Under the pieces are notes generated by a model, which worked only from the letters and a program-made list of their open reading frames with translations, ran no database searches and was not told the origin of the DNA. Below, piece by piece: positions 9,357-57,054 of a stretch of 64,000 nucleotides of DNA. The DNA comes from Schmidtea polychroa (lineage: Eukaryota). Where the stretch lies: assembly GCA_044892525.1 (NCBI GenBank), contig CM097885.1:244900001-244964000 (forward strand), written 5' to 3'. Made by a program: the position numbers and the translations under genes. Numbering within the stretch: the stretch's first letter is position 1; each line of letters begins with the position of its first letter.

Positions 9357-9360
<4 letters not shown>

Positions 9361-9428
<68 letters not shown>
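9361..9428. repeat. (AT)n microsatellite
   Basis: Pure AT run of about 34 units. Confidence 0.95.
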
Positions 9429-9431
<3 letters not shown>

Positions 9432-14775: not shown

Positions 14776-14793
14776 ATCCCGGCTGAGCCCCCA
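14776..14793 (-). promoter_or_regulatory. Primer-binding site, tRNA-Pro-like
   Basis: Minus strand TGGGGGCTCAGCCGGGAT, 7 nt from the LTR; 2 mismatches to the canonical tRNA-Pro PBS TGGGGGCTCGTCCGGGAT. Confidence 0.8.
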
Positions 14794-14800
14794 AAAATCA

Positions 14801-16455: not shown

Positions 16456-16458
16456 ATA

Positions 16459-35831: not shown

Positions 35832-35941
35832 AAATGGGTTGACTATCAATTAGTTTGGGAGCCTGCAGATTTTGGTGGAATTAAAGTGACACGAGTGTCT
35901 CCTAAAATCGTATGGAAACCAGATATAGTTTTATTTAATAA
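35832..35941 (+). CDS. nAChR exon 4 (110 nt)
   Basis: KWVDYQLVWEPADFGGIKVTRVSPKIVWKPDIVLFN(N). Confidence 0.93.
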
Positions 35942-36693
35942 GTATGTTTTATAAAAATTTGATTCTTGATTTTCTATTATACAGTAATTCTGTTGATGAC
36001 TTTCAGTTCAACGATATTGATATTATCGAAATTCCATTTGACAAATTCTGAATAATCTGATTCTATTTTTTGACATTCATTTGGCTGTGATATCTGGTAT
36101 TGGCTCTTGAATTGGAATTTTTTGTGGTTCAATTTTACATAATTGGAAGTTATTAGGTTTAATAAATTCTATAAATTTAAAATTCACTCGAAACTGAGCA
36201 TATGCATATTTAGGAATTCTATAATATTCAAGTGTAGGTTTAATATCAGTCTGCTTGTCTTTTTGGAGAGGAGTTACATTAAACTAATGGAAAAGCTTGA
36301 TCTTCATTATTTCTAGGGAATAAAGCACATCTAATATCTTATAATTGGCATAGCAATTTGAAATAGCAGCAATAATTTTGTAATTATTAGCAGACTTAAA
36401 ATTATTGGTGAAATGATCTTGATATTTTCCATATCTATAATTCATTAAAAAATTCAAATTCATTATTTTTAACGACATTTTTGAAACAAAATTTTTCTAA
36501 AATACAATCACTTCAAATATTCTCAAAAAACTAATTGCTAACCCACAATCCGATTCCGACACACCGCGCACACGGTGACACATCAAATAAAAAAATTAAA
36601 AACGTATATTGATTTGATTGGATGCACCACAAGTGGAGAATGGTCCAATTCATTTTACAACACCATTGTGACCATGCATAACTTTAAAAATTA

Positions 36694-37534
36694 CACCAAA
36701 CACCACTGAGATGCATTTCCTATAATATAACAAAAAAATCAATAATCTTACATTATATAAACATACTTACTTAATTTGATTTCACGTTGATGTTCTAATT
36801 TATAGCTCAATGAGATACATCTTATAGAAATTTGAAAAGTGGAAGGAAAATTAAAAAATGCACACAAGCACAACACATAATAAAAAACACATACAAACTT
36901 TTGATTCGTAAAATTGTAACGATGAGATACGTTTCTATAATAATTCTATTTTAGACAATTTTTAGAAAAAAAAGATCGTTGGAAATTTTTTAAATTATAT
37001 TTTTAATGAAAATATCAAGAGCAGATGAATTTGGTTCAAAATCTTTTTACTCCAGATTTGATTTCCTTTAAGAATCCCCTCATATTGAGCTCAGAAAAAA
37101 AATTACAAAAATTAAAAAAATTATTCTAATCAGCGATTTTTCCCAAAATGTTTTAAAAAAATACATTGATTGATTTATTTATTTAATTAATTATAATTAA
37201 AAATATATCGGACTCACATTTTTCGAAATAATTCCAAAATACTTTAATAAAAGACATAAAATTCCTAAAAAAAGCCTGAAAATTAATTAAAAATAATTTA
37301 TAATTATATTGTTGATTAAAAGTAAAATATCTCATATGGATCAAAATTCAAGTCTTAAAATTTACTTTAAATTTAATATCTTACCTGAAAACCATTTCTA
37401 AAATGGCTAAAATAAATTTCATTATGTAAAACATACGTAAAACAAATTACTGACAACTTTGCTCAACAACAATTTATCATCAACATCAGTATAAAACCAC
37501 CACTATAGAGAACGTATCTCAGTGGTGTTTGGTG
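36694..37534. mobile_element. TA-flanked MITE with CACCAAACACCACTGAGAT TIRs
   Basis: ta|CACCAAACACCACTGAGAT ... ATCTCAGTGGTGTTTGGTG|ta; internal GAGATAC..TATA subterminal repeats. Confidence 0.8.
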
Positions 37535-38419
37535 TATTAGTAATTTTATTTGGTACTAAAGTCTAGAGTGGGGGTGGACAACCTTTTCAGCGGCCGGGCC
37601 TGATTTTAGAAATAAGATTCTCTACAAGGCCGTACAACAAAATTTTTTATTATTATTCAAAACAACCAAGAAATATATTGTTTTCTCACGAGACACATGG
37701 CGATAACGCATACGATGGAAGCAACCATATATCCGACGGCATTGCAAGCAATGTTCCCTCTAAGCCATAAGCAGCAGTGCGCGCAAAGTCAGCTGCGCTG
37801 AGCAGCCTTTAAATACAAATGAGCGTCAAAATGCTATAACGTGGTTGTAAGAGTTTTAAAACGACACTACAGAAATATACCGTTATTATGCATCTGGTTA
37901 TTAACATTGAAAATTTTTAAATATTCAAAATGAACCACATAATAATATTGAGTATCAAAAATTCGTAACGGTTGAATTAAATATATTGCGCTGAAAATAA
38001 TTTTGCTGCGCTGGGGAGTTGGAGGTGCTGCAGCTTAGAGGGAACGTTGATTGCAAGCTTGCCTCAGACTGTCTGTTGCATGATGCATCCTGCTCCGCAT
38101 TCACTCTCACGGCAATATACGCAAGATCGACGTGCGCTCTTTTTAAAATCGGCTTAACGTTGTGATTATTTGTCAACACTAATATACCATAGAAGAAATT
38201 GTAACGATGACTGAATTAATTTACTGAGATACTTCCATATATTCGATATGATACCAACTACGCATGTCAGAATGTTCCTTTGGTGGTTTTGTACATAAAG
38301 AAGAAAAATATGGACATATGCTCCGTGGGCCACCCTTGATCTTACAAATATTAATATGAAAATTATTAAATTTAGTATATTATTAATTTTAAATTAAACT
38401 GTTTCTCAAAAATCTTAAG

Positions 38420-38600
38420 TGCCGATGGAAATTATGAAGTTTTATGGCAGCCAAATATTTTGATTCAATACGATGGGGAAATTTTATGGATTCCACCAGC
38501 TATTTATGAAAGTTCTTGTAGCATTTTGGTTGAATATTTTCCATTTGATGAACAAATTTGTGAAATGAGATTCGGAAGTTGGACTTTTAATTCAAAACAA
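38420..38600 (+). CDS. nAChR exon 5 (Cys-loop)
   Basis: ADGNYEV...WIPPAIYESSCSILVEYFPFDEQICEMRFGSWTF; C-x13-C loop. Confidence 0.95.
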
Positions 38601-38765
38601 GTAACCTTATAGATTTTCTATATTTTCAAAATATCAACTCAGTTATAGAAATTCATTTTAATATTTTTTATGATAACCCTAACCCAAATTCTCAGATGCG
38701 TCACTTGGGTGGTGTCACCCGTTACATTGATTTATGTGGTCACCTTTCCTTAAAAATAAATAATA

Positions 38766-39347
38766 CCGTAATTATCCAAATGTAGTACACTTCGTTACGC
38801 ACCATTAAAAATGAACTAAACGTAAAATATAAGTAACCCAATTATAATATGTATGTATATTGATTAAAAAGGTTTGAATTTAATCAATATTCAATTATTC
38901 CAATTTCGGTAAAAATTTAAATTTTTATTCCCATATTATGTCTTTAAAACACTGCAGTTACACGACTGGTTTTAAATTGAAAGTAATTGAAACAGCTGAG
39001 AAATAGTGGAGAATCTCAAGCATATGGCCTAATTGAAAGTCTTTGGAGAAGAAATAAAAATATTTTACAGAAATGCGGATTCTCTACAGAGGCTCCTGGG
39101 AGTGGTAGAAAATTATATGACAGTAAGTGAAGATGAAAATAATGACCTCTTTAATGAAAATAGTTTCATTGAATAATAAAAATAAACATTTTGTAACAAT
39201 TTATTTTTTACTTCCCTTACCCATACTGGTTTCTCGGGAAATGTTTTAAACAGGAAAAATTATTTCCTGTTTTATCCTTGTATAATTTGCGCTCCGATTA
39301 TCATCCAAAACAATAAGATAAAGCATATTATATACGGATATTTACGG
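38766..39347 (+). mobile_element. pogo-family (Tc1/mariner) deletion derivative
   Basis: ta|CCGTAATTATCC ... GGATATTTACGG|ta. ATG at 38938 gives MSLKHCSYTTGFKLKVIETAEK*, a pogo/BrkDBD-type HTH start. Confidence 0.75.
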
Positions 39348-40770
39348 TAAATCAAACTATTTTAAAATTTCCGCCTTCGAATTTTAGCCATACTTATTCT
39401 CCCCAAGTTGTTTTCATTAAATTATTTTTAGGATTTTTTGCAAAACTAATTTTGTTTGTAGTTTGTTTACTATATTATCACTAGTTGAAGTTATTGATTT
39501 GTTTTGCTTGTGGAATGGAAGGGTGAATGAATAACTTCATAAGTCAATTTATTTTATTAATGAATTCTGTCAACAAATAGGCGAAGTTGCTATGAACTTC
39601 CTTTTATTGAAAATCGACTGGTCTTTATACTTCTTTTGAAGGTTTTTATGAATTTAAGTATAATAGAAATGTGATGAAAGGATATATTTATCGTTCATGG
39701 TCTTTATATTTTAGTCCTGTAAATTCAGTAAATTGGTTAAGTTGTTGATGAAGAATGAATATTCCAAATCACTTTTATTAATAATAATGAAAGAGATAAA
39801 TGTATAAGGATTCTTAAAGACCTGCATTTGAGAATTATGAGGTAAATAACATTAATAGTGTGAAAAAGGATGAAAAGGATGAAAAGATGAACATTTTTAG
39901 TTGGTTCTGCTGTATTAGAAGGGTTTAACATAAAATAATAATAAGATAAGCAAGCTGTTGAATAACCTAAATTTCACGATTATCTCTAATTCATGTAAAG
40001 AACACAATATGTTTTTCAATAAATCAAAAACTCCAGTTGAAGTGTGTTCAGATCTCGAATATCAATTTACATGCAATGGGTTTAATGTCACATACATTGA
40101 AAAGATTTCCCGTTTTCTATATACTCAAGAGATTCAGGTCTTGATTTTCTTCCGTTGCAGTCGTAGTAGGATTAATAGTTTTAATAGTGAATTTATCTAA
40201 AGAACCTGATAGCTTTTGTCGAGCGTCTTCTATTTTACTTATTTTGCGCGCCTGATAATTTTGATGTTTTTCCGATTCCAGACATCTAAGGATTTTAAGT
40301 TAAAATTTATTATACATTGTAATTATTTAATATTGTTATTTAATATATAATTAGTTATTTAATATTGTAAATTATACTTACGTTGAAATTTTATAATGAA
40401 TGCCTGATGAAAATCAATAAATATTTGATTTACGCAGAAGACATGCAGTGGTGGTCTTGACTAGACGTAAATGTCAACCAATATTAGGTTGACCAATATT
40501 AGTGAATACAATAATAAGTAAAAATGTCATTTCTGATTTTAAAATTTTATTATAAATATAAATTAGTTTTAATAATTTTTATTTTGGCGTCTCAAAGTAG
40601 TTTCTTAACTGTTCATGTGTCTCATAGAAACTAATAATTTATACCCCCTTTGCCTGGAAGTTGAAGCCTCGCAAAGGGTGAGATTGATTGCAATAAAATA
40701 TGATTGTAAAAATATTTTTATGGAAACTAGATATCCATAAGCGTTTCTTATAAAGAATTTATATTTGTAG

Positions 40771-41802
40771 GTTTCTCTAAGTTGGTCGGGCAGTTCAAAA
40801 ATAGATTTATCAACTTATTGGTTAAGTGGTACTTGGGATATAATATCCTGTCCCGGTAGAATAACTAATGGAACTATGGATTCGAGTGGAATCGAGACTC
40901 AAGAAATTATTTATCAAATTACAATTCGTAGAAAGACTCTATTTTATACAGTTATCCTTATTCTTCCTTGTTTATTAATTTCTCTACTTACAGTCTGTGT
41001 TTTCTATTTGCCAGCTGATGATCACCATAAAATGACGCTGACTATTTCCATCCTTTTAGCATTGATTGTATTTTTCCTTTTAATTAGTAAGCTACTTCCT
41101 CCTACTAGCACTTCTATTCCTCTTATTAGTAAATACTTACTCTTCACTTTTATTGTTAACATCATAGTTATAGTAATCACAGTGATCATCATTAATTTGA
41201 ATTATCGTACCCCAAGAACTCATTATATGCCATCATGGGTGAAAAAGGTTTTCATAGAATTTCTTCCAATTGTACTTGGAATGAGTAGACCAAAGCATAT
41301 CGAACAGGAGCTTATAGACAAAAAGAAAATCGGTGTTATTTCTCCTGGAATGATGAGGCAACAGAAGAAAACTTTGAATTCAACCAAACCGGTAGTGAGC
41401 GCATTTGATAAGTTGAAACCCAGCTCGAAACGTTTGATAAAAATGGTTGATTCTCAAATTTCAATGGGACTCATGAATGACAAATTTAAAAGATATTCCA
41501 ATGATGCTGACAATGGGATTTGGAAATCTCAAAATAGTAAAATTATGCCATCGACTAGTTGTAATAAAATTACAAATAATTCGTTCAATTTTTCTCGTAA
41601 TTGGGAGGATATTGAACATGTTCCAAAGAGGTCCTATACAGATAGCATTTCATCAAAAAGCGACAGTAGCACTCGACTGACAGATGAAATGAATACAAAT
41701 TGGCTATTTCGCGGTTATGAAATTAATCATGAAATGAGGCAGGCCATTCTTAGTATTAATTTTCTTTCCTCCCATACAGAATCCCAAGGAGAATTTTCAA
41801 TG
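40771..41802 (+). CDS. nAChR exon 6 (loop C without vicinal Cys, M1-M3, cytoplasmic loop); beta1/UNC-29-like non-alpha subunit
   Basis: IDLSTYWLSGTWDII...IRRKTLFYTVILILPC...KMTLTISILLALIVFFLLISKLLPPTS...NYRTPRTHYMP. No YxCC, so non-alpha. Confidence 0.93.
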
Positions 41803-41847
41803 GTTAATAATATTTTATTGTTAAACTGAATGAACTATATTTTCTAG

Positions 41848-42179: not shown

Positions 42180-43268
42180 TGTTAGGTTCGATGGGTATGT
42201 CTTCGAACTAACACAAAAATGTTCTATCTGACTCCACGTAAATAATTTATGCGCGTAGGTATAAATAAACAAGAAATATGATTTAAATATTTATTTTTTT
42301 TTAATTAAAAGATTATTCACACGTTTAAATAGATATATATATATAGGTACACCACGCTGCTTTCTCTAAGTATAGAAAACGGTTATTCAAACCGCCCTGA
42401 AGAGTGTTACTAAGTATCAAGGCTGGCCCTAAATGCGCCAACAGCCCGATATAGGTGAAAGGAAAAAGAGAACGGGACAATCACCAAAATTTACGCTATA
42501 GAGTTAACCCAGAAATTGGTTAACTCTTTTCAAATAGTTATTGATAACGACACAACACAAAAATACGTGCTGACGTTATGATATCCCTTATTTGAAATTA
42601 CTTAAATTTGTTAAAATATAAACCGATTTGAAAATTACTTATAACTATTTAAATAATGATAAATACTAACTGATTTAATATCTTTACCAAATAACGTTAT
42701 AATAGATAATCCACAAAATTTGCTTTCGATCCAATATTTCCAATACAAATTCTTCAATTAGATTGTCGATAAGACTAAATTCCCAAAATTCCAAAACTAA
42801 ATTTTCCTTTAATCGATGAAAATTATGCCAACTGTCACTTCGCCGAAAATTAGTTTACGATAAAACCAAATTTCCCAAAATTCCAAAACTTGACGAGAAT
42901 TAGTTGGTTGCTAAAAATAGAATTGACTTCTTCTTCTCTAATTTCAGACACTGCGGTTTTTTGCCTTCTCACTTCCTCCTTCCTTCTAATTTTTATCTAT
43001 TATTTATACTAATTTATTTTACGTAATTCTATTAATAGTAATTGTTTAATTACTATTTTTATTATATATTTTAAATAATTTCTATAATTCTATTTTTAGT
43101 AATTATTTATTACCAATTATATTTTAGTTTTAATTTTAGTATTTACTTTCTATTTTTGGTAATTTTAAAATACTATTTTTATTTTAATCCTAATTTTGGT
43201 AATTAATTATTATTTTATTTATTATCTAATTTCGAACGTTCATTTCCGGTTCCTACTGAACCCCAACA
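42180..43268 (-). repeat. 3' LTR of element B (1089 bp)
   Basis: Matches 55953-57054; PPT adjacent. Confidence 0.96.
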
Positions 43269-43280
43269 TGTCTTCCCCCT
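43269..43280 (-). promoter_or_regulatory. Polypurine tract of element B
   Basis: Minus strand AGGGGGAAGACA immediately before the 3' LTR. Confidence 0.8.
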
Positions 43281-43504
43281 AACAAGATTTTCGTCCCGAA
43301 AATTAAAGCGGTAAAGATAAGACAATTGCAGCCGATACAAAAAACAAAAATAAATAAAATGAATCACTGATTAAAATATATATAAAGCAATCAAAGTCAA
43401 AATCAAAAATTGTTAAACAAAATCAAGAATCAGATTAATCAAATGTTGTTCATAAATTGAGGATGTAGCAAATTGCTAGGTCCATTGAACACATAGCCGA
43501 ATTG

Positions 43505-45667
43505 CTAGTATTTTCTCCTTTTCATGACCTTGGCACTTTCGTTACGGATCCTTTGTTCTACAATGTCAGGTCTGTAACTGACCACCAAAGTCTCCCGTGT
43601 ACTTACCTCTTTGTACACAATTGAGGAGATGATATATGAGCCCTCATTAGCCTCCAATACTCCGTAATCGGGGAAATTGGATACGGCTACTTCATGGATT
43701 GGGCCTCCGTCGTATTCCTTGATACGCGGTTTCCATTTGCTGTCGGGTCTCTGCCACCAACTAGGATCTTCTCTGTCGAGATCTTCCCGTATTTTGATTG
43801 AGTTGCCCCTTCCGACGAACTCGCCTTCCTTCACGATGATCGGCTCTCCTGTAATCGTGGGTTCACTCTTTGTTGCCAATATCTTGGTCAACGCGGGATC
43901 TGGTGGCTGATAGTGAGTTTCTAGGAGATCGTCATCCTCATCCTGGATGGATATCCTAGGCATTTTCTTTTTCGTACTCTTAGGAATCTCCTTTTTCCTT
44001 TTTGCGGAGATAGGGACAGTTTTCTCCTTGTCCTCTTTCTGGGGGAGTTTCTCCGTTGTTTTCTTTTTAAACTTCAAATCTTGTAGCTTAAGTAATGGTG
44101 CTACAGCTTGGGGTAACGTTCCTCCTTCTGCTCCTTGTTTGGGTTCACCCAACGGGGCCAATGCTTTCAGGATCTTGGTGACCCGTTCAACTAACTTTTC
44201 TGCTGGCTGTGGTTTGTCTATTTCCATTTTAGCCGAATTCACCACTCTACCGTCATTGGTAAGGGTGACTTGGAGGCAGTTATCGTCTGCACTCTCACAA
44301 GTGGCATAGTCGTCTTCATCAGCAATTGAAATGGCTGGCGGCGACAAGGAATCTTCTTCCACTATTTTCAACAACTTTGACCTGGGGATATCTTCTTTCA
44401 CATAGCTCTCCATAGCTAGAGGTTTCTGCCTGCTTGAGGTTCCGGGTTCCATCTGCTTTATTTGTGAAGACACCACCTCTTTCCGGGTGTCTGGTGAAAT
44501 GTCATCAACCCAGATATCTCGTAAATTGTCGTAAATCTCCTTAATGGTTGTGACATCATTCTCCGTTTGTAGGTCCGAGAAGTGATGTGCCTCTTTACCG
44601 GTGACTGCTTTTGCTAGATATGCCAAACGGTAATACCCGTTGCATTTCTTTAGTTCCCTACTTTCGAGGCATTTAGCTGCGCCTAACTCACGAATTCCGA
44701 GTGCGCGCTGCATTGGGAATCTGATTACTTCTAATAAGTCCTTTACTAGTAATCCCACGATGATCTTCCCATCGCAGATTTTTCTAATTCTTTCGGCACA
44801 GTCTTCTCCGTCGAACTGTCCTGTTATTTGTTTCTCGGTCATACCATGCGCATGCGATTGGTAATGTTTGACCTGTGCTCTGGGGGTGACTCTCGTGTTG
44901 AGTATTAGATCACCATTGAAGTGTGAGATCGAGATGGCCACGATTGCCGGTTTCAAAAATTGTCGTAATGTAGCGTAGTGAGCTGCTACGAAGATGGTGA
45001 GGTTATCCTCTTGTCTAGGGTCCATGCGCTGTCTAACGAAAGACTTGAATGTTTTAATGTCGTTATCGTTGACATTATATGTCCAGTTTGGGTCATTAAC
45101 CCATCTGGTTTGTGTTTCTCTGTGAGGTTCCAGAATTTCCATTGCTATGATGGTATCTATACCTTCACATAACAGTGAGATGTTCTTTTCCCTTCCATCC
45201 CCGTTTTCTATCTCGAGGGTTGTGTGCTTTTGCAGCAAAATGGGGTTTGTGGCGCCAGGAACATAAACCGTAAATGGTTTGTTAATGGCGTGTATCCACA
45301 GGTGGTTGGTCAGACTATGTCTGCCAAACTCAGGCATGACATCGGTGAGCCTAATACTACCGTTATGCTTACCCGGGATTCTTGAGATGATCATTTGACG
45401 CTTTGGGGCCTCGTCAAATTTAAAATTATTGGGTATGCCTGAACAATGACCGTAAAACCAGTGCCTTTGGCCTTTTCTACTTTGCTCCATAACCTGCTTC
45501 TCCAGGTTTTTATAAATAAGTTTTTCTTTTAGTAAGGTTGTAGCACGTATAATGCTATGTTTTCCTTGATATTGGGATATTGGGTGGCTCTGCATTCCTG
45601 AAATAAAAATCATTAACCATAATATCAGATATACTGATATGCCATAATAGGCTAAAAAGATATGCAT
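43505..45667 (-). CDS. ORF3 accessory protein with a degenerate DEDDh (REX4/ISG20-like) exonuclease domain
   Basis: Intact 720-aa ORF between pol and the PPT. ISISHFNGDLILNTRVTP..VKHY...HGMT...GKIIVG...RLAYLAK...ENDV resembles the REX4-like fold. Confidence 0.7.
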   Translation of the reverse strand: MHIFLAYYGISVYLILWLMIFISGMQSHPISQYQGKHSIIRATTLLKEKLIYKNLEKQVMEQSRKGQRHWFYGHCSGIPNNFKFDEAPKRQMIISRIPGKHNGSIRLTDVMPEFGRHSLTNHLWIHAINKPFTVYVPGATNPILLQKHTTLEIENGDGREKNISLLCEGIDTIIAMEILEPHRETQTRWVNDPNWTYNVNDNDIKTFKSFVRQRMDPRQEDNLTIFVAAHYATLRQFLKPAIVAISISHFNGDLILNTRVTPRAQVKHYQSHAHGMTEKQITGQFDGEDCAERIRKICDGKIIVGLLVKDLLEVIRFPMQRALGIRELGAAKCLESRELKKCNGYYRLAYLAKAVTGKEAHHFSDLQTENDVTTIKEIYDNLRDIWVDDISPDTRKEVVSSQIKQMEPGTSSRQKPLAMESYVKEDIPRSKLLKIVEEDSLSPPAISIADEDDYATCESADDNCLQVTLTNDGRVVNSAKMEIDKPQPAEKLVERVTKILKALAPLGEPKQGAEGGTLPQAVAPLLKLQDLKFKKKTTEKLPQKEDKEKTVPISAKRKKEIPKSTKKKMPRISIQDEDDDLLETHYQPPDPALTKILATKSEPTITGEPIIVKEGEFVGRGNSIKIREDLDREDPSWWQRPDSKWKPRIKEYDGGPIHEVAVSNFPDYGVLEANEGSYIISSIVYKEVSTRETLVVSYRPDIVEQRIRNESAKVMKRRKY

Positions 45668-45790
45668 GAGTCTTCTAAAAGATCTACATATGCTGAATTT
45701 TAATGCTACCTGGAGCTCTACGTAAATATAGATTTTAATATATATATAAATATTTATATATGATTTTTCCCTCGGGGGAGTCTGTAATTG

Positions 45791-48700
45791 TCATAATTGC
45801 GACATCAGTACTCCATCGTAAGCCCTTATGGCTTGTCTAAAATATAGCTTGGTCCAAATACCCATAGCTATCAGTGTAGTTACTAGCAATAGGACGGCTG
45901 ATACCGTAATCCATACCCCTATGGGTACTTTCAGGATATATCCTGTATTAAAGTTTGTGATGGCATTACAATCACAACAGTTTGTCAAGTTTGGAGTCGT
46001 TGGACAAGATATTTGTTTGATCGGTGGCAACTGTCTAAGATGTTGCCACATCGTGGGATGTATCACCATGTTTTCTCTAACTACTTTTGGGGGTATTTCC
46101 GTTATTACTGGCTGTTTCAAAGGTAATATCTCCTCGAATACCTCGAACCACCTATCGTCCTCCCGTTTCCTCGGACTATAGTATATAACTAGAACCGAGT
46201 ATTCTACTGACTGATTTAGATACCTTTCTTGGGAGGGAGAGTTCTGGTCTAACCATAATGTTCCTCTCGTGGTTGATCCGTCTAGAATGCTGATTTTCAC
46301 CTTCTCCTCCCTGTTAATTCGCTGACTAAACTTTACTTTATCCCTTCCGTAGGATATCGATATGCGATTTGTGAAATCCGCCGTCCGTAGGATCCAATTT
46401 GATACGTGATAGGTATACCAACCATTCCGATATAACCTTGATGCTGCGATATGCAGTTTATAATCCGTCTCGGCTTTTAAGTCATATAATTCCCACTCTT
46501 TTTCTTCTGAATCGAGCTGGCGGACCCGTAAGTACTTGTTGTAGAAATGTAAATTGAACTTTGTAGCATTATCGCACGTTGTGAGTATGCTAATTCCATG
46601 ATACGTTCTTATAAAATGTAAGTGTTCCACTTGCATAGCCATCGGCTGAAAATAGGCCTTTCTATCCCTTTTTGCCATTGCCAAAGTCATCATACAGCTT
46701 ATTATCAGCAAAAAGGTTACCGATTTTGGAACACCCCTTGATCTCAATGGGTATCGGTGTTCTTGTGGTTCTTCGGTAGTGTTTGGTTTCACTTGTTTCT
46801 CTGGTGCTCTTACTTTTGAATTTCCAGAGATTCCTTTTGTTGAGATTTCGCACTTTTTACACCGATTAGCATGCACCATTATTGGTTCTGCTTTTCTGTT
46901 GGCTACAAGTTGTAATATGAGATTTGTGTCTGTGGTTCTCAATACCTCATATGGCCCTTTGAAATTGCGCATGAGTTTTGGTGATAAGCCTTTCTTGTTA
47001 TAATGACTTTCCAACATCACCTGGTCTCCAACCAATATGCCATGATCCTTGGCTTTTCGGTCATGATAATCTTTGGATGCCTCCTGATTATATTTTATAC
47101 TGAGGCCTGCTCTAGCCCATGCTTCCTGCATTCTTTCCCGCATTTCCATTAGATAATCTTGCTGATCCAAGTACTGTGTTGCTTTAGGAAAAAACAACAG
47201 ATCTACTGGCATTTTACTTTGTCTCAAATACATTAGGTAAAATGGTGTTTCACCTGTTCCTTCGTGTACTGCATTTCTATATGCAAATAAACAGGATGGA
47301 ATGTGGATATCCCAATCCGTTTGCCCTGAATTTACATATGATGCTAACATATTAGCTAATGTTCCATTAAATCGCTCTACTAGCCCATCCGTCTGTGGGT
47401 GATATGGGGAAGTGTTCAACTTTAAAACTCCGAAATAATCATTTATTCCTTTGAGCAAATTACTCATGAAATCAGCTCCCCTATCCGTTAATAGCTTCGT
47501 AGGTACTCCATACCTAAAGACAATTTGTTCAACGAAAATTCTAGCTATCGTATCAGCTTTGTGATTAGGCATCGGGTAGGCTTCTGGCCACTTAGTCAAG
47601 TAATCACAGAACACTAAGATGTACTTGTTTCCGCTATTGGATTCTTTAAATGGCCCCAACACGTCCATTGCCGTCATTTCCATAGGTGTAGATGGTATTG
47701 GCATCGGCTTCATTGGCACGTGTGGTTTCTTTCCGGTATTTCTTCTGGTGATACAGATCTTACATGTCTGACACCAGGTTTTAACCTCTTGTTTCATGCC
47801 GGGCCAAAAATATTTTTGTTTTAACCTTGACAATGTTTTTCTGGATGACAGGTGGCCTCCTAAGGCTCCATCGTGATACTGCAACATGAGTGCTTCACGG
47901 TATTTCTTAGGGACCATTACAACATTGTCTCTTACATCTGAATATTTGACTAATCCTTCCTCCAGCACAAACTTGTCCTTATTCTTTTCCCAGTATTTCG
48001 TGAATTCTGTGGGCACGTATTTCGCTTCTAAGGCTTGTCGAATGACATTGATTTCTTCGTCAGCTTTTTGTGCCTCCATTAAATCAGCTAGCCGGTTGGC
48101 TTCTCGAGTCAGTGTGAAGATAGTCCCTTCGAGACGTCCTTCCTTCACATCTTCTGCCTCCTCCTCCTGGTCCATTCTCGATAAAGCATCTGCATTTCCA
48201 TTGTGATCTCCTTTTCTATAATGGATTTCTATGTCATATGGCTGTAAAATTAATGCCCATCTGACCAGTTTTGATGTATCCATTGTATGTTTCGTCAACC
48301 ACTGTAATGGTCTATGATCGGTATACACTATGATCTTTCGACCCCATAGATAAGTCCTAAACTGGGTTATAGCATACACAATTGCTAAAGCCTCTAGTTC
48401 TATCACTGCGTAGTTTCTTTCATGCGGTTTTAATCCTCTGCTAGCGTATGCAATTGCATACTCATCTCCTAGGTCATCTCTCTGACCTAGCACAGCACCT
48501 ATGCCCCGAGTGCTGGCATCTGTCATAACCAAAAATTGTCTCTCAAAGTCTGGAAATCGCAATATAGGTGGCTTGATGAGTTTTTCCTTGAGCATATCAA
48601 ATGCTTCTTGCTGTTCTGTTCCCCACACAAATTTGACATTTTTGCCTTCTAACTGCGTGAGTGGAAAAGCTATAACCGAAAAGTTTCTAATGAATTTTCT

Positions 48701-49118
48701 GTAGTATCCAACTAGACCTAAAAACCCTTTGATATGTTTAACGGTTTTAGGCTCCGGGAAATTCTTTACCTTTTCGACATTAGCTGGGTCGGGTTTAACC
48801 CCGTCTCGTGATATGATATGGCCAACATATACCACTTCTGGTTCGGCCCATTTACATTTGGTCGGTTTCACTTTCATGTTGGCGTTAATCAACCTCTTGA
48901 ACACATCTTCCAAATGTTCCAAGTGTTTTTCCAAATTTGGCGAGAATACTATAACGTCGTCAATGTATACCATCGCATGATGTACATCCATGAGCATCAA
49001 ATTCATTGCTCTTTGAAATGTGGCTGGAGCTCCGGTGAGTCCAAATGGCATTACGTTATATTCGTAATGACCCATACTCGTAGAAAACGCTGTTATTGGT
49101 ATAGTCTCATCTTTTAGC
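45791..49118 (-). CDS. Polyprotein part 2: RT core, RNase H, integrase, C-terminal membrane protein
   Basis: MPFGL, YIDD, TDAS, ELEALA, HHCC, D-D-E (AMD, TDRG, VERFN), GPY. The frame continues upstream of the Met as FYQIKLKDETIPITAFST. Confidence 0.95.
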
Positions 49119-52100
49119 TTAATTTGATAAAATCCCTTTTTGGGCGTCCATTACTGAGAAGAACCTAGCGTTTCTCATGCGTCCATAGATATAATCTAAC
49201 AATGGCAATGGATGGCTATCTTTGCATGTTGCTTCGTTAACCATGCGATAGTCGTTACATAATCGTACTGATCCATCCTTCTTGGCCACCACTATCATTG
49301 GTGATTGATATGGTGATTTACTATGCCTGATTATGCCATGTTTTAACATCAGTTTCACCTGTTTATCTACTGATTCCTCCAGACTGAATGGAATACGGTA
49401 TGGTCTCAACTTTATAGGTTTTGTATTGGTGAGAACAATCTCATGTTCTAACAAGTTTGTCTTTCCCAGATCATATTCATGTTTCGCGAATACCTGGTCA
49501 TATTTCCTCAATAACATATTTACTTGAATATTTTCTTTTCTAGTTAGCACTTTGCTGTTTGCTGTAGGTGCATCGTAGTACTCAATGTCTGGATCTCTTT
49601 CTTCTGCCTTTACGGTGAGTATTGACCCTTCTCCCGTAGCTTGTGGTTCGTTTTGTTTCCAGATTCTGCCCACTCTGGTATCTGGATATAAGTAAAGTGG
49701 TTTAATGTCCAGATTGGCTACCCTGATTGGTATTCTGCCATTGACTATTAAACCTACGCTATGCGTTACTGGTATATTGTATTTCTCCGAGAATTTTTCG
49801 TTTGGTTCGAATACAACTTCACCTTCCCAATTATTGCTTGTAGCTACAAAGCAAACTGTTTCCGCTCTGGGTGGTATGATAGTTGTATGATCTATATAAG
49901 CCGTATCATCGTTGTAAATTTTCCTCTTTTTACCTCGTGCTCGGATTAACAATCCAGATGCACAATCGAATACTACTCCTCGTAGTCTTTTTAGGATGTC
50001 CATACCTAATAGACATTCGGCTGGGAGACTTCTCATCACTATGATGTCGTGATGGAGCTCCTGGTCACAAAGCTTAATCTGGCATGATAATAACCCTATT
50101 ACGTTTAATGAGGATCCGTTTGCTCCTGTTAATTTTACTCCTGCCGGTTTTGGCGATTGCAGTTCATGATGGTTTAACAATTTAGCTTCAATTATGGTAC
50201 CATCTGCTCCTGAGTCTATCACCGCATTAACTGTATGTCGGTTCACTCTTATTTTTATCATTGGCTTTTTATCCAAGTTCACTGGGTTGTTGACCATCAA
50301 GATAGTATCGTGCGATATACCGATTGTATTTGCCCTCGTTTGTTCTGCTTCCAGTAATTCAGGATCACTCAGTTGAGGATTATACTCTTTGAATTTAGCT
50401 TTAATTGACTCTAACGCTTCCTTTGGATAGTGCACTTTAAGTAATTCTGGCAATGTTGAGCATGTCAAATTATTAAATATGGTATCTTCACCGATTTTCC
50501 ATTGGTGTCGTCCTGTTCTGAGTGTTGTTTCCCTCGAGTGTTCCCGCCCTTCGTTTGGTGCGGATGGTAAACTCCTCAAAGTTGGCAATTGTACGTATCT
50601 TGGACTTCTCTTGAATCTGGGTGACCTTATGTCGAATTTTTGGTCGGAACTGTCATATTCTCCTTCTGAGGACTGTTTTCTCACATAGATTTCCTTTGAT
50701 TGGTCATATGGAGGAAGATATTCCTTGAATCTCGATTTTCTTTGTTGCTGATTCGGTTTTTTGTTGTAGTTCTGTTTTCGTGATTGATTTGATCTTGAAG
50801 ATGTCTCACGAGAGCCTCCATTACCTCCTCCCTTTGAATTGTTATCGTCCCGATAACTCGAATACTCCTCCATTTCTGTTCCAATTACTTCATGTTTGAC
50901 CAAATGTTTCTGTCTAATTTCTTTAATTTCTTTTCTGTGATGTTTGAATAATGCAAACTCTGCACACATAGGACATAGTCCTAATAGCAGTTTCCATGAC
51001 CATCCTCCAATTTTGAATATGCTATATGTTGACATCAGTTGTGTAATTATCAGCTTTAAAATTACAAATATTGCGTAAATTCCTGAACATCCCGCGACGA
51101 AAATACCAAAATTGGTGAATCGTCCCCATATTTTCATCATTACGTTCTTTGCTGCTTCTTTATAGTGTTCCGGTCCAAATAATAAATTGTAATCTGGTCG
51201 TATCAAATTATCATGATAAATTGTTCTTATAATTTCCGTGATACCTCTTTCTCTGATTTGTGGGAATAGCAATGTCCTCCTTGCTTCCTCGATATCGTCG
51301 GGAGTATAGATCCCTCTTTTTGCTAATTCATCTAGTGACTTGAATTCCAGATTATCTTTTAATTTAGTCACCTCCAAGGTCTCTACCCGTTGTGTAGATG
51401 GTTTTCTTTCCGGCAGAGATATCCACATGTCATTTATTTTGTATAATGGTGATATTGCCGGGTTGCATATAGCTGGTTGAGGTTTAGCGTTTTCCTCAAG
51501 TAACTTTCTGGTTACTGGCATAACAAATCTCAATTTTCCTTGGTAAGATACTGGCAGTTCTAGAGTGCATTGATTAAATCTGGCTAATTGTACTTCAACT
51601 GGTTTACACTCATAGCTATATATAGCTTCTCCCATGATTCTGCCAAACATTCCATCTTCCAATAACATTGGAGTAACCAACTCTGGGTTAACGATAGATA
51701 TTGCTAATCTATTTCGGACTATTTCACGATTTAGCTTACAATCGTTTAGTATCACTTCTTGATACATATCTTGCATTTGTCCTTGCAGATCATGATATAA
51801 ATAATCTACCTTATTATTTATATAATTCGTGATTTTGATATCCTTTACATGTAGGACCTTGGAATTCCGGATATATTCTCTGGACAGGAAAATTCCTTTG
51901 TAGTTCGTCTCGTATACTCTTTTCCCACATTTAGTCCTTTTATCTTTTCGGACAAATCGAATTGCTTCCGTCTTGTCTTCCGATATCAATACTAGAGGTG
52001 TGTTTTCCTCTCCGATATCTTCCTTCTCTTGTTTGTTGATTTTCTTCAACGTTTTTGCTTTATCCCAAACCTTTTCTGGATTCTGGGAGTCCCGATATTT

Positions 52101-55100
52101 AGTTCCATTTAATTTTCTAAAAGGAATTTTCTTGAGGAAAGCCAACTCACAATGATCTCTCATTTGTTCGTAAATTAACGTAGTGGTTCCCGTTTTACAA
52201 CTACCGAACTTGGCATTGCATTGCGGATGTGCCATCAATTTTCCTGTGGCCACATCGAATGTTCCCTCGTATTCTCGTAGCTCCACTGAGTAATCTTCTA
52301 TGTCTACCACATAGGAAACTAAATTGCTACCGCGAATTTTCTTTCTACCTTCGCATGTTCCGTCTGAAGCGATTGTTCCTCCTCGGGTGATTGTTATTCC
52401 CAAGGTTTTCCCAATTTCTGCTGAAATTGATACCTCGTTGTCTATCCTCACACTTCCTTTTCGAAATGCATCTAAGCAATCTTCGGGCATTATGTTTACC
52501 GGCCTTGGTATTAATGTTGCGGATAGAAAAGCAGAATAGCTATTACTACCGCAATAATATTCGAACGTAGCTCTCTGAACTCTACAATCCTTTATCGTGG
52601 TTCTATAAAATTCACTCTCTTGGTAGACATAATATTCTACCTTTTCCCCTTGATGAACCTTCTCGGGATACGCCTCTTTGCACTCAATTGCATCTACTAG
52701 CGAATATACCCGAGATAGTTTAGGGTTTCCACAGTCAAATACTGTTAATGAATTTGTTTGTTTTAATATGCCCATCATCACTAGGAACATCAGGATCATG
52801 CTTGTCATGTTTCCTGTGCCTGGACTACCATTATTTATGGCTTCTTCTACGACTTCAAATCGTGGTTTTGGAATCGTTTCTTTTTCCCAAAATTTGTTTA
52901 CGGTCATCCATACCTCCAGGTAATAATCTACCATTTCGACTATTTGATCGATTTCTCGTTCTATAAGCCTTTTATCATCCCCTATCCGGGCCAAGGCATT
53001 TTGAATTAACAATGATAAAGATGTTACCACTTTCCCTCTTGTTAACCCTTGCTGCACGAATGCTTCTATGACATCCTGGGTATCTCTTGTTGTTACATCT
53101 TTGGATACTCTGTCCATTGTCTTCTTGACCTCTTTTGCTATTTTCTTTACTTCGATCCCCTTGATTTTTGGAATTCTCCATTCGGGCCTGATAATCCCGA
53201 TCATTTGTTGTATACGTTGCCACAATAACGACCTTTCTGCTGTTGTCTCATCTCCCGCCTGGTCGTCCATTTCTTGAGCTATCCCTGCTAATGTTTTTAA
53301 CTGAATTTTCCGAATCGTTTCTGGATTTAACTGCTCCTTGGGTGGAGGTTTCATCTGATCCTTTCTAGGACGTCCTCGTGCATTTTTTTTCACTTTCTCC
53401 GGAGGTTTTTCATTCTCCAGATTTGTTACTGCTTGTGACGTAGTAGCTCCTACGTTTTTTTCTCCTGGGTTTAATCTGATATATTCTGAGAAGTAATCTT
53501 CCTCGTCAATGTCCACCATTTGACAGGGATTAATTTCCTCTAGTCTTATTTCCTCAATTTCTTCCGCAATTTGGTTTGCTATATCTGGCAGTCTCATTAA
53601 TGACCACTGGGACTCTGGTGGAGTTACTGGGATGATCATTACCGTGGTTGTTGCCAGCGGTAGACAACCCACATCCACTAAATATTCATCGTCATCCACT
53701 TGCCTGCCATGGACCATTATCAGGAATATACCTGTAGTTTGATCGGTGGCAATTACATCTCTCCTCAATATTTTAACCTTGATATAGCAATTATAAATCA
53801 TTGTTAATGGTTCTTTTCCCATCATTCGCACGTCTAGATTAATGTTGCCTTGTCTATCAGGCTGACTTCGGATAGCTTTCCCATTTTTCCTCATCAGCGC
53901 TTCAATTTGCGTCTGAAATGGGCTTGTTTCCTTTACCACTGGTAGTATAAGTGGAATTATTGCTTCCAATAAATCTACTGGTATTCGTAATACTAACATC
54001 CAGTCCAGTATTTCCTTTATAGTTTTACCATCTCGTGGGGATTTCTGCAATTCCAACCCTAGTCGCTGGGTTAATTGTTGAGTTTCCTCCAATCTCTCGA
54101 TTTCCATCTGAGTAATCAAGAATACGCTATCTTGATCCATTACTGCCACTGGCTTTGGTGCTCTCTTTGCTGTGAGCTTCGTCACTCTACCTGGGAGTAT
54201 CCCATTCTGTAGAAGTGTTTGGTTTGCTTCTAATTTTATTCCACATAAGTATAAGTCATATCCTTGATGCTTAATACTTGTCAATGTTTCCGTTAATTTA
54301 TCGGCTCGACTTCTTACATTTATATCGAGGTTATACTCTTTATCCTGTGGGAGTTTTATATTGAGCTGGGCATCTTGGAGATCCCACTCATGTTCCAAAA
54401 GTTTTCCTAATTTCCTTAGGATTTTGTACGTGTCGTTATGATACTTTGGATCATCTTCGACCTGCGATATCAGTTTTACTACTGTATCGATTTCGTGAAT
54501 TTTAATTTCTGTTTCTCCCAATTTTCCCAATTGTCTGGCCAGCTTCTGCTGGTACTCATATCTGGAATCCACCAGTTTTAAACATTTTGTTAGGGTATCT
54601 GACCCTTCTTTTACCTTTGCTTTCCCTGTCAAGGTTCTATCGAACTCGCTTAGTATGGTGGCCATACTAGGTTCATCATCGGAACTCTCCTCTGATTCCG
54701 TTTCCTGAAGGTCCTCTCTAACGGAGTCCTTTTTTCTGAGATACTCATCTCTTCCAACTTCTACCATGAAGATGGTGCCTTCTTGGTCGGTCAATCTAGC
54801 CAACCTATTCTTTTCTTCCTGGATTTCCATTTCCAGTTGTTGCAGATACGTTAACCCTTGATCCTGGTTAACCATGAAAGTTGTCTTAGACTTGTTCACA
54901 TTACCCTTATCGGTATTTTTATTGAACTGACTCGTGTTTCCACTCTGGTTCTGAGGACATGACCTCATCATATGTCCGAATTTCCCACATCCGTGACATT
55001 TTATCTTTCCTGATGAATTTACATCATCTCTTTTGATTGTACTAAAATTATTGCTGTTCTGAGGACTTCTAGTCTTGCAGACCGCAGCAACATGTCCCTT

Positions 55101-55853
55101 TCGCTTACATTTTTCGCATTGCAAATTCTGCACTCTACAATTTTCCGCACTGTGGTTATTCCGTCCACATTTGGTACATTGTATACTTTTACGATTGTCC
55201 ATAATTTTCCTACTGGTACAATCTTTCGCTATATGCCCTTTTCTATGGCAATTGAAACACTCTACCGGTGTTCTTTCACTGTTTACCAGGAACATGGTTG
55301 ACTTTTCCAAGCTGCTTTCAATTACGACAGCTTTCCGTGTCAATTCGTCAAAATCGTCGCTAGTATGTAATATTAGAGCGTTCCTCATTGTAGGAGTAAG
55401 TCCTGCCCATAGCTGATCCTTAACTAACAATTCTGTTGGCTTTGCCCATGTGGTTTTTGGTCCAAATGCTCTTTCAGCAATTAAAGATAGCTGGTGTGCA
55501 AATTCCCCCACATGTTCATTGGCATTCTGTTTTCGATGGTAAAATTGTTGTCTAAATATTCTTCCCGCATCTCCGGGCAATATTCGAGCAGTCATTTGTT
55601 CTCTCATTTCGGCCCATGTTTTCGGTACTTGAGCAACTGGTAATGCCATAATGTCATTATATTTTTCTCTTGCCAGCCCCTTCAAATATATAGGCAGCCT
55701 TTGTATCATGATATTATCTGGATAGGCGTATGCTTTGGCCATCTGATAATATTCAGACATAAACTCTGGGAATTCTCCCGGATCACCGCTGAATGCCTTT
55801 ACGGGCAGAGCGGGATATCTGGCAAATGCATTTACATTAGCTTCCTCTGCCAT
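49119..55853 (-). CDS. Polyprotein part 1: Gag (4 CCHC), 2 ubiquitin-like domains, AT-hook, class-III-like envelope glycoprotein, aspartic protease, RT N-terminus
   Basis: 2244-aa ORF with four CX2CX4HX4C motifs; signal-like MTSMILMFLVMMGIL then LTVFDC, a Cys-rich ectodomain and a TM; protease VIDSGA; RT start KKDGSVRLCNDYR..N...KDSHPLP. Confidence 0.93.
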   Translation of the reverse strand: MAEEANVNAFARYPALPVKAFSGDPGEFPEFMSEYYQMAKAYAYPDNIMIQRLPIYLKGLAREKYNDIMALPVAQVPKTWAEMREQMTARILPGDAGRIFRQQFYHRKQNANEHVGEFAHQLSLIAERAFGPKTTWAKPTELLVKDQLWAGLTPTMRNALILHTSDDFDELTRKAVVIESSLEKSTMFLVNSERTPVECFNCHRKGHIAKDCTSRKIMDNRKSIQCTKCGRNNHSAENCRVQNLQCEKCKRKGHVAAVCKTRSPQNSNNFSTIKRDDVNSSGKIKCHGCGKFGHMMRSCPQNQSGNTSQFNKNTDKGNVNKSKTTFMVNQDQGLTYLQQLEMEIQEEKNRLARLTDQEGTIFMVEVGRDEYLRKKDSVREDLQETESEESSDDEPSMATILSEFDRTLTGKAKVKEGSDTLTKCLKLVDSRYEYQQKLARQLGKLGETEIKIHEIDTVVKLISQVEDDPKYHNDTYKILRKLGKLLEHEWDLQDAQLNIKLPQDKEYNLDINVRSRADKLTETLTSIKHQGYDLYLCGIKLEANQTLLQNGILPGRVTKLTAKRAPKPVAVMDQDSVFLITQMEIERLEETQQLTQRLGLELQKSPRDGKTIKEILDWMLVLRIPVDLLEAIIPLILPVVKETSPFQTQIEALMRKNGKAIRSQPDRQGNINLDVRMMGKEPLTMIYNCYIKVKILRRDVIATDQTTGIFLIMVHGRQVDDDEYLVDVGCLPLATTTVMIIPVTPPESQWSLMRLPDIANQIAEEIEEIRLEEINPCQMVDIDEEDYFSEYIRLNPGEKNVGATTSQAVTNLENEKPPEKVKKNARGRPRKDQMKPPPKEQLNPETIRKIQLKTLAGIAQEMDDQAGDETTAERSLLWQRIQQMIGIIRPEWRIPKIKGIEVKKIAKEVKKTMDRVSKDVTTRDTQDVIEAFVQQGLTRGKVVTSLSLLIQNALARIGDDKRLIEREIDQIVEMVDYYLEVWMTVNKFWEKETIPKPRFEVVEEAINNGSPGTGNMTSMILMFLVMMGILKQTNSLTVFDCGNPKLSRVYSLVDAIECKEAYPEKVHQGEKVEYYVYQESEFYRTTIKDCRVQRATFEYYCGSNSYSAFLSATLIPRPVNIMPEDCLDAFRKGSVRIDNEVSISAEIGKTLGITITRGGTIASDGTCEGRKKIRGSNLVSYVVDIEDYSVELREYEGTFDVATGKLMAHPQCNAKFGSCKTGTTTLIYEQMRDHCELAFLKKIPFRKLNGTKYRDSQNPEKVWDKAKTLKKINKQEKEDIGEENTPLVLISEDKTEAIRFVRKDKRTKCGKRVYETNYKGIFLSREYIRNSKVLHVKDIKITNYINNKVDYLYHDLQGQMQDMYQEVILNDCKLNREIVRNRLAISIVNPELVTPMLLEDGMFGRIMGEAIYSYECKPVEVQLARFNQCTLELPVSYQGKLRFVMPVTRKLLEENAKPQPAICNPAISPLYKINDMWISLPERKPSTQRVETLEVTKLKDNLEFKSLDELAKRGIYTPDDIEEARRTLLFPQIRERGITEIIRTIYHDNLIRPDYNLLFGPEHYKEAAKNVMMKIWGRFTNFGIFVAGCSGIYAIFVILKLIITQLMSTYSIFKIGGWSWKLLLGLCPMCAEFALFKHHRKEIKEIRQKHLVKHEVIGTEMEEYSSYRDDNNSKGGGNGGSRETSSRSNQSRKQNYNKKPNQQQRKSRFKEYLPPYDQSKEIYVRKQSSEGEYDSSDQKFDIRSPRFKRSPRYVQLPTLRSLPSAPNEGREHSRETTLRTGRHQWKIGEDTIFNNLTCSTLPELLKVHYPKEALESIKAKFKEYNPQLSDPELLEAEQTRANTIGISHDTILMVNNPVNLDKKPMIKIRVNRHTVNAVIDSGADGTIIEAKLLNHHELQSPKPAGVKLTGANGSSLNVIGLLSCQIKLCDQELHHDIIVMRSLPAECLLGMDILKRLRGVVFDCASGLLIRARGKKRKIYNDDTAYIDHTTIIPPRAETVCFVATSNNWEGEVVFEPNEKFSEKYNIPVTHSVGLIVNGRIPIRVANLDIKPLYLYPDTRVGRIWKQNEPQATGEGSILTVKAEERDPDIEYYDAPTANSKVLTRKENIQVNMLLRKYDQVFAKHEYDLGKTNLLEHEIVLTNTKPIKLRPYRIPFSLEESVDKQVKLMLKHGIIRHSKSPYQSPMIVVAKKDGSVRLCNDYRMVNEATCKDSHPLPLLDYIYGRMRNARFFSVMDAQKGILSN

Positions 55854-55931
55854 TTGATTTTCCAGTTTTACTCTGGCTCTAGTTCCTAACGCTATTTTGT
55901 TTTAATTCAATATATACCCGCTGATAATTTA

Positions 55932-55949
55932 ATCACGTCGGGCTCACCA
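55932..55949 (-). promoter_or_regulatory. Primer-binding site, tRNA-Trp
   Basis: TGGTGAGCCCGACGTGAT, 3 nt from the LTR; 1 mismatch to the canonical tRNA-Trp PBS TGGTGACCCCGACGTGAT. Confidence 0.88.
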
Positions 55950-55952
55950 AAA

Positions 55953-57054
55953 TGTTAGGTTCGATGGGTATGTCTTCGAACTAACACAAAAATGTTCTAT
56001 CTGACTCCACGTAAATAATTTATGTGCGTAGGTATAAATAAACAAGAAATATGATTTAAATATTTATTTTTTTTTTAATTAAAAGATTATTCACACGTTT
56101 AAATAGATATATATATATATATATATATATAGGTACACCACGCTGCTTTCTCTAAGTATAGAAAACGGTTATTCAAACCGCCCTGAAGAGTGTTACTAAG
56201 TATCAAGGCTGGCCCTAAATGCGCCAACAGCCCGATATAGGTGAAAGGAAAAAGAGAACGGGACAATCACCAAAATTTACGCTATAGAGTTAACCCAGAA
56301 ATTGGTTAACTCTTTTCAAATAGTTATTGATAACGACACAACACAAAAATACGTGCTGACGTTATGATATCCCTTATTTGAAATTACTTAAATTTGTTAA
56401 AATATAAACCGATTTGAAAATTACTTATAACTATTTAAATAATGATAAATACTAACTGATTTAATATCTTTACCAAATAACGTTATAATAGATAATCCAC
56501 AAAATTTGATTTCGATCCAATATTTCCAATACAAATTCTTCAATTAGATTGTCGATAAGACTAAATTCCCAAAATTCCAAAACTAAATTTTCCTTTAATC
56601 GATGAAAATTATGCCAACTGTCACTTCGCCGAAAATTAGTTTACGATAAAACCAAATTTCCCAAAATTCCAAAACTTGACGAGAATTAGTTGGTTGCTAA
56701 AAATAGAATTGACTTCTTCTTCTCTAATTTCAGACACTGCGGTTTTCTGCCTTCTCACTTCCTCCTTCCTTCTAATTTTTATCTATTATTTATACTAATT
56801 TATTTTACGTAATTCTATTAATAGTAATTGTTTAATTACTATTTTTATTATATATTTTAAATAATTTCTATAATTCTATTTTTAGTAATTATTTATTACC
56901 AATTATATTTTAGTTTTAATTTTAGTATTTACTTTCTATTTTTGGTAATTTTAAAATACTATTTTTATTTTAATCCTAATTTTGGTAATTAATTATTATT
57001 TTATTTATTATCTAATTTCGAACGTTCATTTCCGGTTCCTACTGAACCCCAACA
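55953..57054 (-). repeat. 5' LTR of element B (1102 bp)
   Basis: Matches 42180-43268; longer mainly through an (AT)n tract. Confidence 0.96.

Follow-up and report, generated by a model that had tools for sequence, protein, structure and literature searches.

A 64,000-nucleotide stretch of the Schmidtea polychroa genome (contig CM097885.1, positions 244,900,001 to 244,964,000; hereafter the window, in whose numbering positions are given unless a locus is named) harbours a 14.9-kb Ty3/Gypsy provirus on its reverse strand. The coding region of this element specifies Gag, an Env glycoprotein, the Pol enzymes and, beyond the integrase, a second predicted ectodomain bounded by hydrophobic segments (Table 1). 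The two long terminal repeats (LTRs) are 98.5% identical (1,102 columns; 3 mismatches, 2 gaps), and a 4-bp target-site duplication (AAAC) lies at the ends of the provirus. The host genome contains a tRNA-Trp gene whose 3' end plus CCA complements the primer-binding site (PBS) exactly over 18 nt, and a tRNA-Trp PBS was also present in three of the four sister-family 5' stretches examined. This primer derives from tRNA-Trp genes arranged in tandem at a period of 284 bp (contig C4, about 55,022,400-55,032,700).

Several features that characterise the Metaviridae were recovered, namely the Ty3-type domain order of protease (PR), reverse transcriptase (RT), RNase H (RH) and integrase (IN) by Pfam, paired TG...CA LTRs with a short duplication, and a host-tRNA PBS together with a polypurine tract. 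An env located between gag and pol, a chuvirus-like Env and several near-identical intact copies further place the element with the GAG-ENV-POL gB-type errantiviruses, an operational group (PMC13524379), whilst the Ty3/Gypsy assignment was made here from domains and structure.

Table 1. Features of the provirus and its polyprotein, in window coordinates.
Feature	Position	Strand	Basis
Provirus, Ty3/Gypsy, 14.9 kb	42180-57054	(-)	LTRs, PBS, polypurine tract, target duplication
5' LTR, TG...CA, AAAC target-site duplication alongside	55953..57054	(-)	LTR pair alignment, element ends
PBS, tRNA-Trp	55932..55949	(-)	18/18 nt complement of tRNA 3' end plus CCA
ORF A, 2,260 codons	49119-55901	(-)	
Gag: capsid-like domain, four CCHC knuckles, long unannotated middle; predicted cytosolic	52821..55853	(-)	
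Internal signal sequence 1; predicted cleavage T-N-S / L-T-V-F-D-C	52749..52820	(-)	Hydropathy, -3/-1 rule
Env ectodomain, Monjiviricetes/chuvirus-like (gB-type) fusion glycoprotein	51105..52748	(-)	Pfam PF24664, E 5.6e-87
Env membrane anchor (stop-transfer)	51048..51104	(-)	Hydropathy; also in sister families
Aspartic protease (DSG)	49977..50273	(-)	Pfam PF13975, E 4.7e-12; PF00077
RT (YIDD), split across ORF A/ORF B in window copy only	48812..49544	(-)	
ORF B, 1,119 codons	45791-49150	(-)	
RNase H	48236..48625	(-)	Pfam PF17917/PF17919
Integrase: H2C2 zinc finger, core, C-terminal part	47051..47914	(-)	Pfam PF17921, PF00665
Internal signal sequence 2, abutting integrase tail; predicted cleavage A-M-A / K	46673..46732	(-)	Hydropathy; sister-family equivalents
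Second ectodomain, about 250 aa, three sequons; first domain (about 46636-46367) possibly FN3-like	45923..46672	(-)	
C-terminal membrane anchor, then 25-aa tail, stop TGA at 45793-45791	45866..45922	(-)	
Accessory ORF C, degenerate ISG20L2/REXO4-like exonuclease domain	43505..45595	(-)	ATG two bases after acceptor-like site 45597
Polypurine tract, just before 3' LTR	43271..43280	(-)	
3' LTR	42180..43268	(-)	LTR pair alignment, element ends

A single polyprotein frame

In the window copy the coding region is divided between two open reading frames (ORFs). ORF A encodes Gag, the Monjiviricetes-type fusion glycoprotein, the protease and the start of the RT, and ORF B the remainder of the RT, the RNase H, the integrase and about 400 further residues; the two overlap by about 10 codons inside the RT (49119-49150). 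The initial annotation had proposed that these ORFs fuse into one frame of about 3,350 residues, and the sibling copies bear this out. Amongst 30 loci the frame change was confined to the window copy, with all 29 others in frame at this spot and 28 of them stop-free there. Uninterrupted frames of 3,366-3,369 codons hold four of the 126 matches to the C-terminal part, and a fifth match lies in a 3,366-codon frame with one stop within the match. Counted from the first ATG at 55853, the precursor is about 3,350 amino acids long. The element family has one continuous ORF, and the RT break, private to the window copy, is either a lesion or a slip in assembly. The overlap of the two frames could have been taken for a programmed frameshift setting the ratio of Gag-Env to Pol; since the break sits in the middle of the RT, and one frame is kept there in 29 of 29 sibling loci, this candidate was rejected as extremely improbable.

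Hydrophobic segments were located with the Kyte-Doolittle scale (averaging span 19, threshold 1.55), and signal sequences were judged by hydropathy together with the -3/-1 rule. Segments were found at all four places where the initial annotation had put them, at 52820-52764 (1.58), 51104-51048 (2.28), 46732-46676 (1.74) and 45922-45866 (2.36). The identity of Gag was indicated by zf-CCHC (E 6.5e-9), with cysteine spacing that supports the knuckles, and by a match to Retrotrans_gag that fell below the cut-off (E 0.007). The Env ectodomain gave no significant match to PDB sequences, and no relatives of Env were found in metagenome contigs.

Conservation of the layout

Sister families were located in the same genome using distant Env stretches as queries, and 19 stretches (designated by L numbers) were examined. 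Three sister families have recurrent open frames, of 3,334, 3,437 and 3,516 codons. In all five families that could be read through the integrase to the stop, namely that of the window and L041, L043, L045 and L073 (integrase identities to the window of 67%, 50%, 69% and 85%, respectively), the integrase is followed by a signal-like segment, an ectodomain, an anchor and a short tail. The broken copies L046 and L049 also carry this module, whilst L042, L047, L052, L078 and L079 are deleted, broken or truncated copies; in L042 an internal deletion fuses the second ectodomain in frame with the exonuclease ORF. Six database polyproteins (P numbers) with this Env were retrieved, four of which extend past the integrase, and the module is present in P0001, P0002 and P0006. 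The order Gag, signal, Env, anchor, PR-RT-RH-IN, signal, ectodomain, anchor and short tail thus recurs in divergent families. Extra aspartic-protease-like domains were also seen in the database polyproteins, in three stretches of P0002 and P0003 and two of P0006, one of the latter lying after the integrase.

Residues around the segments are consistent with the topology that had been proposed from the window alone. The Env start can be aligned on a conserved [YF]DC motif, and a small residue occupies position -1 in 12 of the 12 starts located and a permitted residue position -3 in 10 of 12, against a background of 16%; as these sequences are related, they do not amount to twelve independent trials. 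The L041-type Env start was missed by the pattern, yet has Ser at the corresponding place. Across eight sequences the second ectodomain contains 1.82 sequons per 100 residues, compared with 0.39 for RT-IN and 0.18 for Env. The last anchor is followed within 20 residues by at least three basic residues in 10 of 10 cases, versus 0-3 in the 15 residues before it. The module order, the residue at -1 of Env, the sequon-rich ectodomain and the basic residues after the last anchor thus speak for the proposed topology, of which the cleavages are predicted.

The second ectodomain

When the window and 20 further copies were compared, the ratio of nonsynonymous to synonymous polymorphism (pN/pS) was 0.21 for the second ectodomain, against 0.06-0.08 for Env (0.08), PR, RT-RH and IN. 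The second ectodomain is under purifying selection, and a value of 0.21 marks it as a working part of the element, though its protein changes several-fold faster. Between families it is barely alignable, with 3 of 28 pairs matching, and no homologues were found among longer proteins or among 1.84 billion representatives.

Several leads point in one direction as to the fold of its first domain. The ten best named matches in the ESM Atlas were all fibronectin type III (FN3) domains, with a top score of 0.89 that serves as a lead only, and the same was observed for a sister family. A motif of FN3 type, L-x-x-x-x-x-Y, is present in six of eight ectodomains and occurs twice in L041 and L045. With a low-confidence structural model, the best VIA match was fibronectin (Z 7.7, root-mean-square deviation 2.9 over 81 residues), and the top Foldseek rows were likewise FN3 (E 2.6e-3). 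These signals, weak and concordant, suggest that the first domain of the second ectodomain is FN3-like. The second ectodomain of P0006 is short, cysteine-rich and not FN3-like, from which the cargo at this position seems swappable.

Predicted threading of the precursor

A mechanism can be proposed from the standard rules of topogenesis at the endoplasmic reticulum (ER), in which one precursor of about 3,350 amino acids would cross the ER membrane four times. The first signal would send Env into the lumen and, once signal peptidase had cut it, its stub would keep Gag anchored, in a manner likened to the flavivirus capsid. The Env anchor would then stop transfer, such that PR-RT-RH-IN would remain cytosolic, hanging from the Env tail, and the second signal would open another luminal excursion carrying the FN3-like ectodomain. 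The last anchor would make this a type I membrane glycoprotein whose tail is 25 aa long, and the element's own protease would subsequently trim Gag and Pol. If Gag and Pol were cut apart by the host in this way, Pol could not be packaged as a Gag-Pol fusion and would need to be brought along by a membrane tether or by binding RNA, which would favour budding through membranes.

The frame, the domain order, the four conserved segments and selection on both ectodomains are observed, whilst threading through the ER and cleavage are predicted from sequence. We consider the best explanation to be a recently active GAG-ENV-POL, gB-type Ty3/Gypsy element that makes a single, four-crossing precursor, with a probability of roughly 0.65 for the whole.

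A number of observations weigh against this explanation or parts of it. Proline-rich stretches of the window's Gag score as highly as the proposed segments (53999-53943, 2.01; 53681-53625, 1.80), and L075 and L077 have an extra hydrophobic stretch about 80 residues before signal 1, so that the count of crossings could differ; the closest sister family, L074, has no Gag segment at or above 1.55. The 1.55 threshold misses L043 signal 2, L073 signal 1 and the P0001 Env anchor, such sub-threshold segments having been read by eye or with a shorter averaging span, and the signal 2 cleavage sites were also read by eye. No hydrophobic segment follows the integrase in P0003. Env is poor in sequons, with one N-glycan sequon in 545 residues in the window, and Env glycosylation, which the initial annotation had named amongst the tests of its topology, would for this reason mislead. 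A 1:1 ratio of Gag to Env would be unusual for a retrovirus-like particle. As regards the FN3 likeness, Pfam assigned no family to the window's second ectodomain, in which the gathering score of PF00041 was not reached, and the Pfam fn3 match in L043 (E 0.091) scored 13.4 bits against a cut-off of 25. Two ectodomain models had a mean predicted local distance difference test score (pLDDT) of 36-38, with the second half left without a useful model. Each FN3 lead falls under the confidence line of its tool, and a Z score under 8 may reflect a common fold only.

One way in which the topology could fail concerns signal 2, which might act as an uncleaved signal-anchor or often be skipped, leaving the integrase tethered or the FN3-like domain partly cytosolic. 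The segment is short and of moderate hydropathy, drops below threshold in L043, and in the window is flanked on both sides by basic residues (RSRG...K before, KRDRK after). Set against this, its final residue is small in all the families read (by eye), sequon density downstream of it is 4-5 times that of RT-IN, and the last anchor has basic residues after it, all of which make such behaviour unlikely.

Probable splicing, the accessory ORF and stop context

Downstream of the polyprotein lies ORF C, a sister-family version of which matched ISG20L2 (E 9.5e-11). A T-rich, acceptor-like site is found 2 nt before the ORF C ATG in 28 of 30 copies, and similar sites precede a downstream ATG in four sister families (two detected by scan, two by eye). 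The ORF C ATG also marks the onset of amino-acid constraint, the ratio being 0.05 for codons 66-101 versus 1.5 for codons 1-41, with few variants behind either figure. On the strength of these sites and of the constraint, the element probably splices. Of four sequencing runs set against a stretch lying inside the LTRs, one that is tentatively RNA (X1) had depth in 30 of 30 bins and no listed junction, and every listed junction came from another run (X4); these observations weigh neither way on splicing or expression. A hydrophobic N-terminus of ORF C (45661-45605) was discounted as probably a translated T-rich acceptor tract.

This bears on the claim of the initial annotation that Gag, Env and Pol would be equimolar, which would follow only if no subgenomic RNAs exist. 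The frame could be single and most Gag, Env or FN3 protein nonetheless be supplied by spliced or internally started RNAs, in which case output would not be equimolar and threading would matter only for a minor full-length precursor. The acceptor-like sites and the onset of constraint at the ORF C ATG fit such a scheme, as does the fact that accessory ORF3s of LTR elements typically arise from spliced RNA (PMC5408684). Conversely, the frame is open through Gag-Env-Pol-FN3 in four separate families, no in-frame, ATG-led signal was seen to be needed for a free Env, and a simple consensus scan revealed, immediately ahead of signals 1 and 2, no acceptor-like site as rich in T. We therefore regard supply chiefly from such RNAs as rather improbable, although less so than failure of signal 2, and retain the single threaded precursor as the preferred explanation.

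Some further properties of ORF C were observed. The L041 family (L041:7752-9218) retains exonuclease motifs of catalytic type (DAE, HSALED), which the family of the window has lost, and in the L045 family a small coiled-coil-like ORF (by eye) takes the place of the exonuclease ORF. DEDDy exonuclease ORF3s are known from rotifer LTR elements (Rodriguez 2017, PMC5408684). The polyprotein stop stands in the context TGA CAA TTA (45793-45785, reverse strand) in 30 of 30 copies. This is a classic leaky-stop context. ORF C is in frame with the polyprotein stop, the linker (45790-45596) being 195, 198 or 201 nt long in all 28 copies compared and stop-free in 27 of them, as against 13 of 3,000 shuffles; the linker shows no amino-acid constraint, and the sister families do not have the TGA CAA TTA context. 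Minor readthrough into ORF C is possible on this sequence pattern. The ORF C frame also extends stop-free well to the 5' side in two sister families, where it overlaps the polyprotein end, at L073:7267-7517 (-1 frame; stop-free in 10 of 3,000 shuffles) and L043:6633-6910 (+1 frame; 39 of 3,000).

Possible role of the second glycoprotein

The manner in which errantiviruses with a lone gB-like Env enter cells has been called unknown, given that herpesvirus gB needs gD and gH/gL (PMC13524379). That missing partner of gB has a direct candidate in the conserved, selected second membrane glycoprotein of the precursor. The most natural reading of a variable, predicted glycosylated protein of adhesion type that is made alongside a lone gB-like fusogen is that of a partner in attachment, and cell attachment on behalf of the fusogen is accordingly the role we tentatively favour for the FN3-like protein, at somewhat less than even odds; the main alternative is a decoy or host-modulating surface protein. 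More tentative still is a fuller picture, a two-part entry machine in which the gB-like fusogen would act with a captured, fast-changing and modular FN3 membrane protein that binds the target cell, built of one to three FN3 repeats according to family and comparable in its role with gD for herpesvirus gB, and in which the enzymes would be packaged via the Env tail and membrane tethers.

Were the proposed layout correct, cutting of Gag from Pol by signal peptidase would make replication depend on budding through a membrane, and the layout predicts packaging of RT and integrase without a Gag-Pol fusion. A stated question on errantivirus entry would also become testable, in what appears to be a tractable planarian host.

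Comparison with known elements

The initial annotation had viewed the single-frame layout as a departure from standard expression; this overstates its novelty, such layouts having been published. In-frame env between gag and pol is found in planarian Burro polyproteins (Arkhipova & Yushenova 2019, PMC6431247), GAG-ENV-POL gB-type elements are described from Platyhelminthes, Nematoda and Bryozoa, including six Schmidtea mediterranea elements (Chary & Hayashi 2026, PMC13524379), and the belpaovirus Atlas encodes a single 2,828-aa Gag-Pol-Env polyprotein (PMC9094657).

The closest likeness is to the GAG-ENV-POL errantiviruses, which are Ty3/Gypsy elements with env before pol, a gB-type Env and multiple copies (PMC13524379). 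The nearest published element is Smed_errantivirus_4, whose Env row agrees with the window Env in about 66 of the first 100 aligned positions (by eye). The accessible text makes no mention, for these elements, of a second membrane protein after the integrase, polyprotein threading or an exonuclease ORF, and a count over the main text gave zero for each of the words 'polyprotein', 'fibronectin', 'accessory' and 'exonuclease' (PMC13524379).

Burro/GYPSM1 shares the in-frame env, a mononegavirus-like fusogen, CCHC knuckles and accessory ORFs, with Burro exceeding 30 kb and having a 4,873-aa ORF with MATH, BIR, BCL2, ankyrin and dUTPase (PMC6431247). Unlike Burro, the window element is 14.9 kb long, lacks Pfam matches to these cargo families and ends in the FN3-like membrane protein; given this length, and with no MATH, BIR, BCL2 or ankyrin Pfam family at E 0.1, membership of Burro was rejected. 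The nematode NERVs of Sacco et al. 2022 reportedly combine a continuous gag-env-pro-pol ORF with an RNA-virus-derived glycoprotein and an extra downstream ORF. The first of these features is present in the window family; the hosts of NERVs are nematodes, whereas the published Env nearest to that of the window is from a planarian.

Atlas likewise makes one polyprotein with two glycoproteins, which in Atlas form a tandem pair of attachment-like GN and fusogen GC (PMC9094657). In the window element, by contrast, the two glycoproteins are mutually unrelated and flank Pol. Atlas is of BEL/Pao type, with a class II phlebovirus-like Env after Pol and the motif YVDN (PMC9094657), and assignment of the window element to the Belpaoviridae was rejected as its Env is PF24664 and precedes PR and its RT motif is YIDD.

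The initial annotation had termed the polyprotein flavivirus-style, which stands as an analogy and not as kinship. Flavivirus and alphavirus polyproteins alternate signal and stop-transfer sequences, are processed by host signal peptidase plus a protease of their own, and have a capsid that is membrane-anchored when first made. The window element shares this type of layout by prediction, without homology, and carries an RT and an integrase; since no NS3 protease-helicase or NS5 RdRp Pfam family is present, a Flaviviridae polyprotein was rejected.

No description of a post-integrase membrane protein in these elements was found in the literature, though subscription papers, Repbase entries, figures and bioRxiv supplements may hold one; the accessible portions of PMC11410931 and PMC12770441 contain nothing on such a protein. 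Thus, whilst the single Gag-Env-Pol frame has published precedents, the conserved second membrane protein after the integrase appears new, as do the implications of the layout for packaging and entry.

Neighbouring features of the window

Exons of a ligand-gated ion channel gene of nicotinic-receptor type lie at 35900-41830 on the forward strand (PF02932, E 3.9e-43), ending about 350 bp from the provirus. The provirus is antisense to this gene and probably intronic, the last transmembrane exon of the gene not having been found within the window. A second LTR element occupies positions 175-16456, with 1,660-bp repeats that are 99.4% identical. It has no long pol ORF and is probably non-autonomous; it carries a gag-like ORF of 729 codons on the reverse strand and a 13-bp tandem array at 6370-6764.

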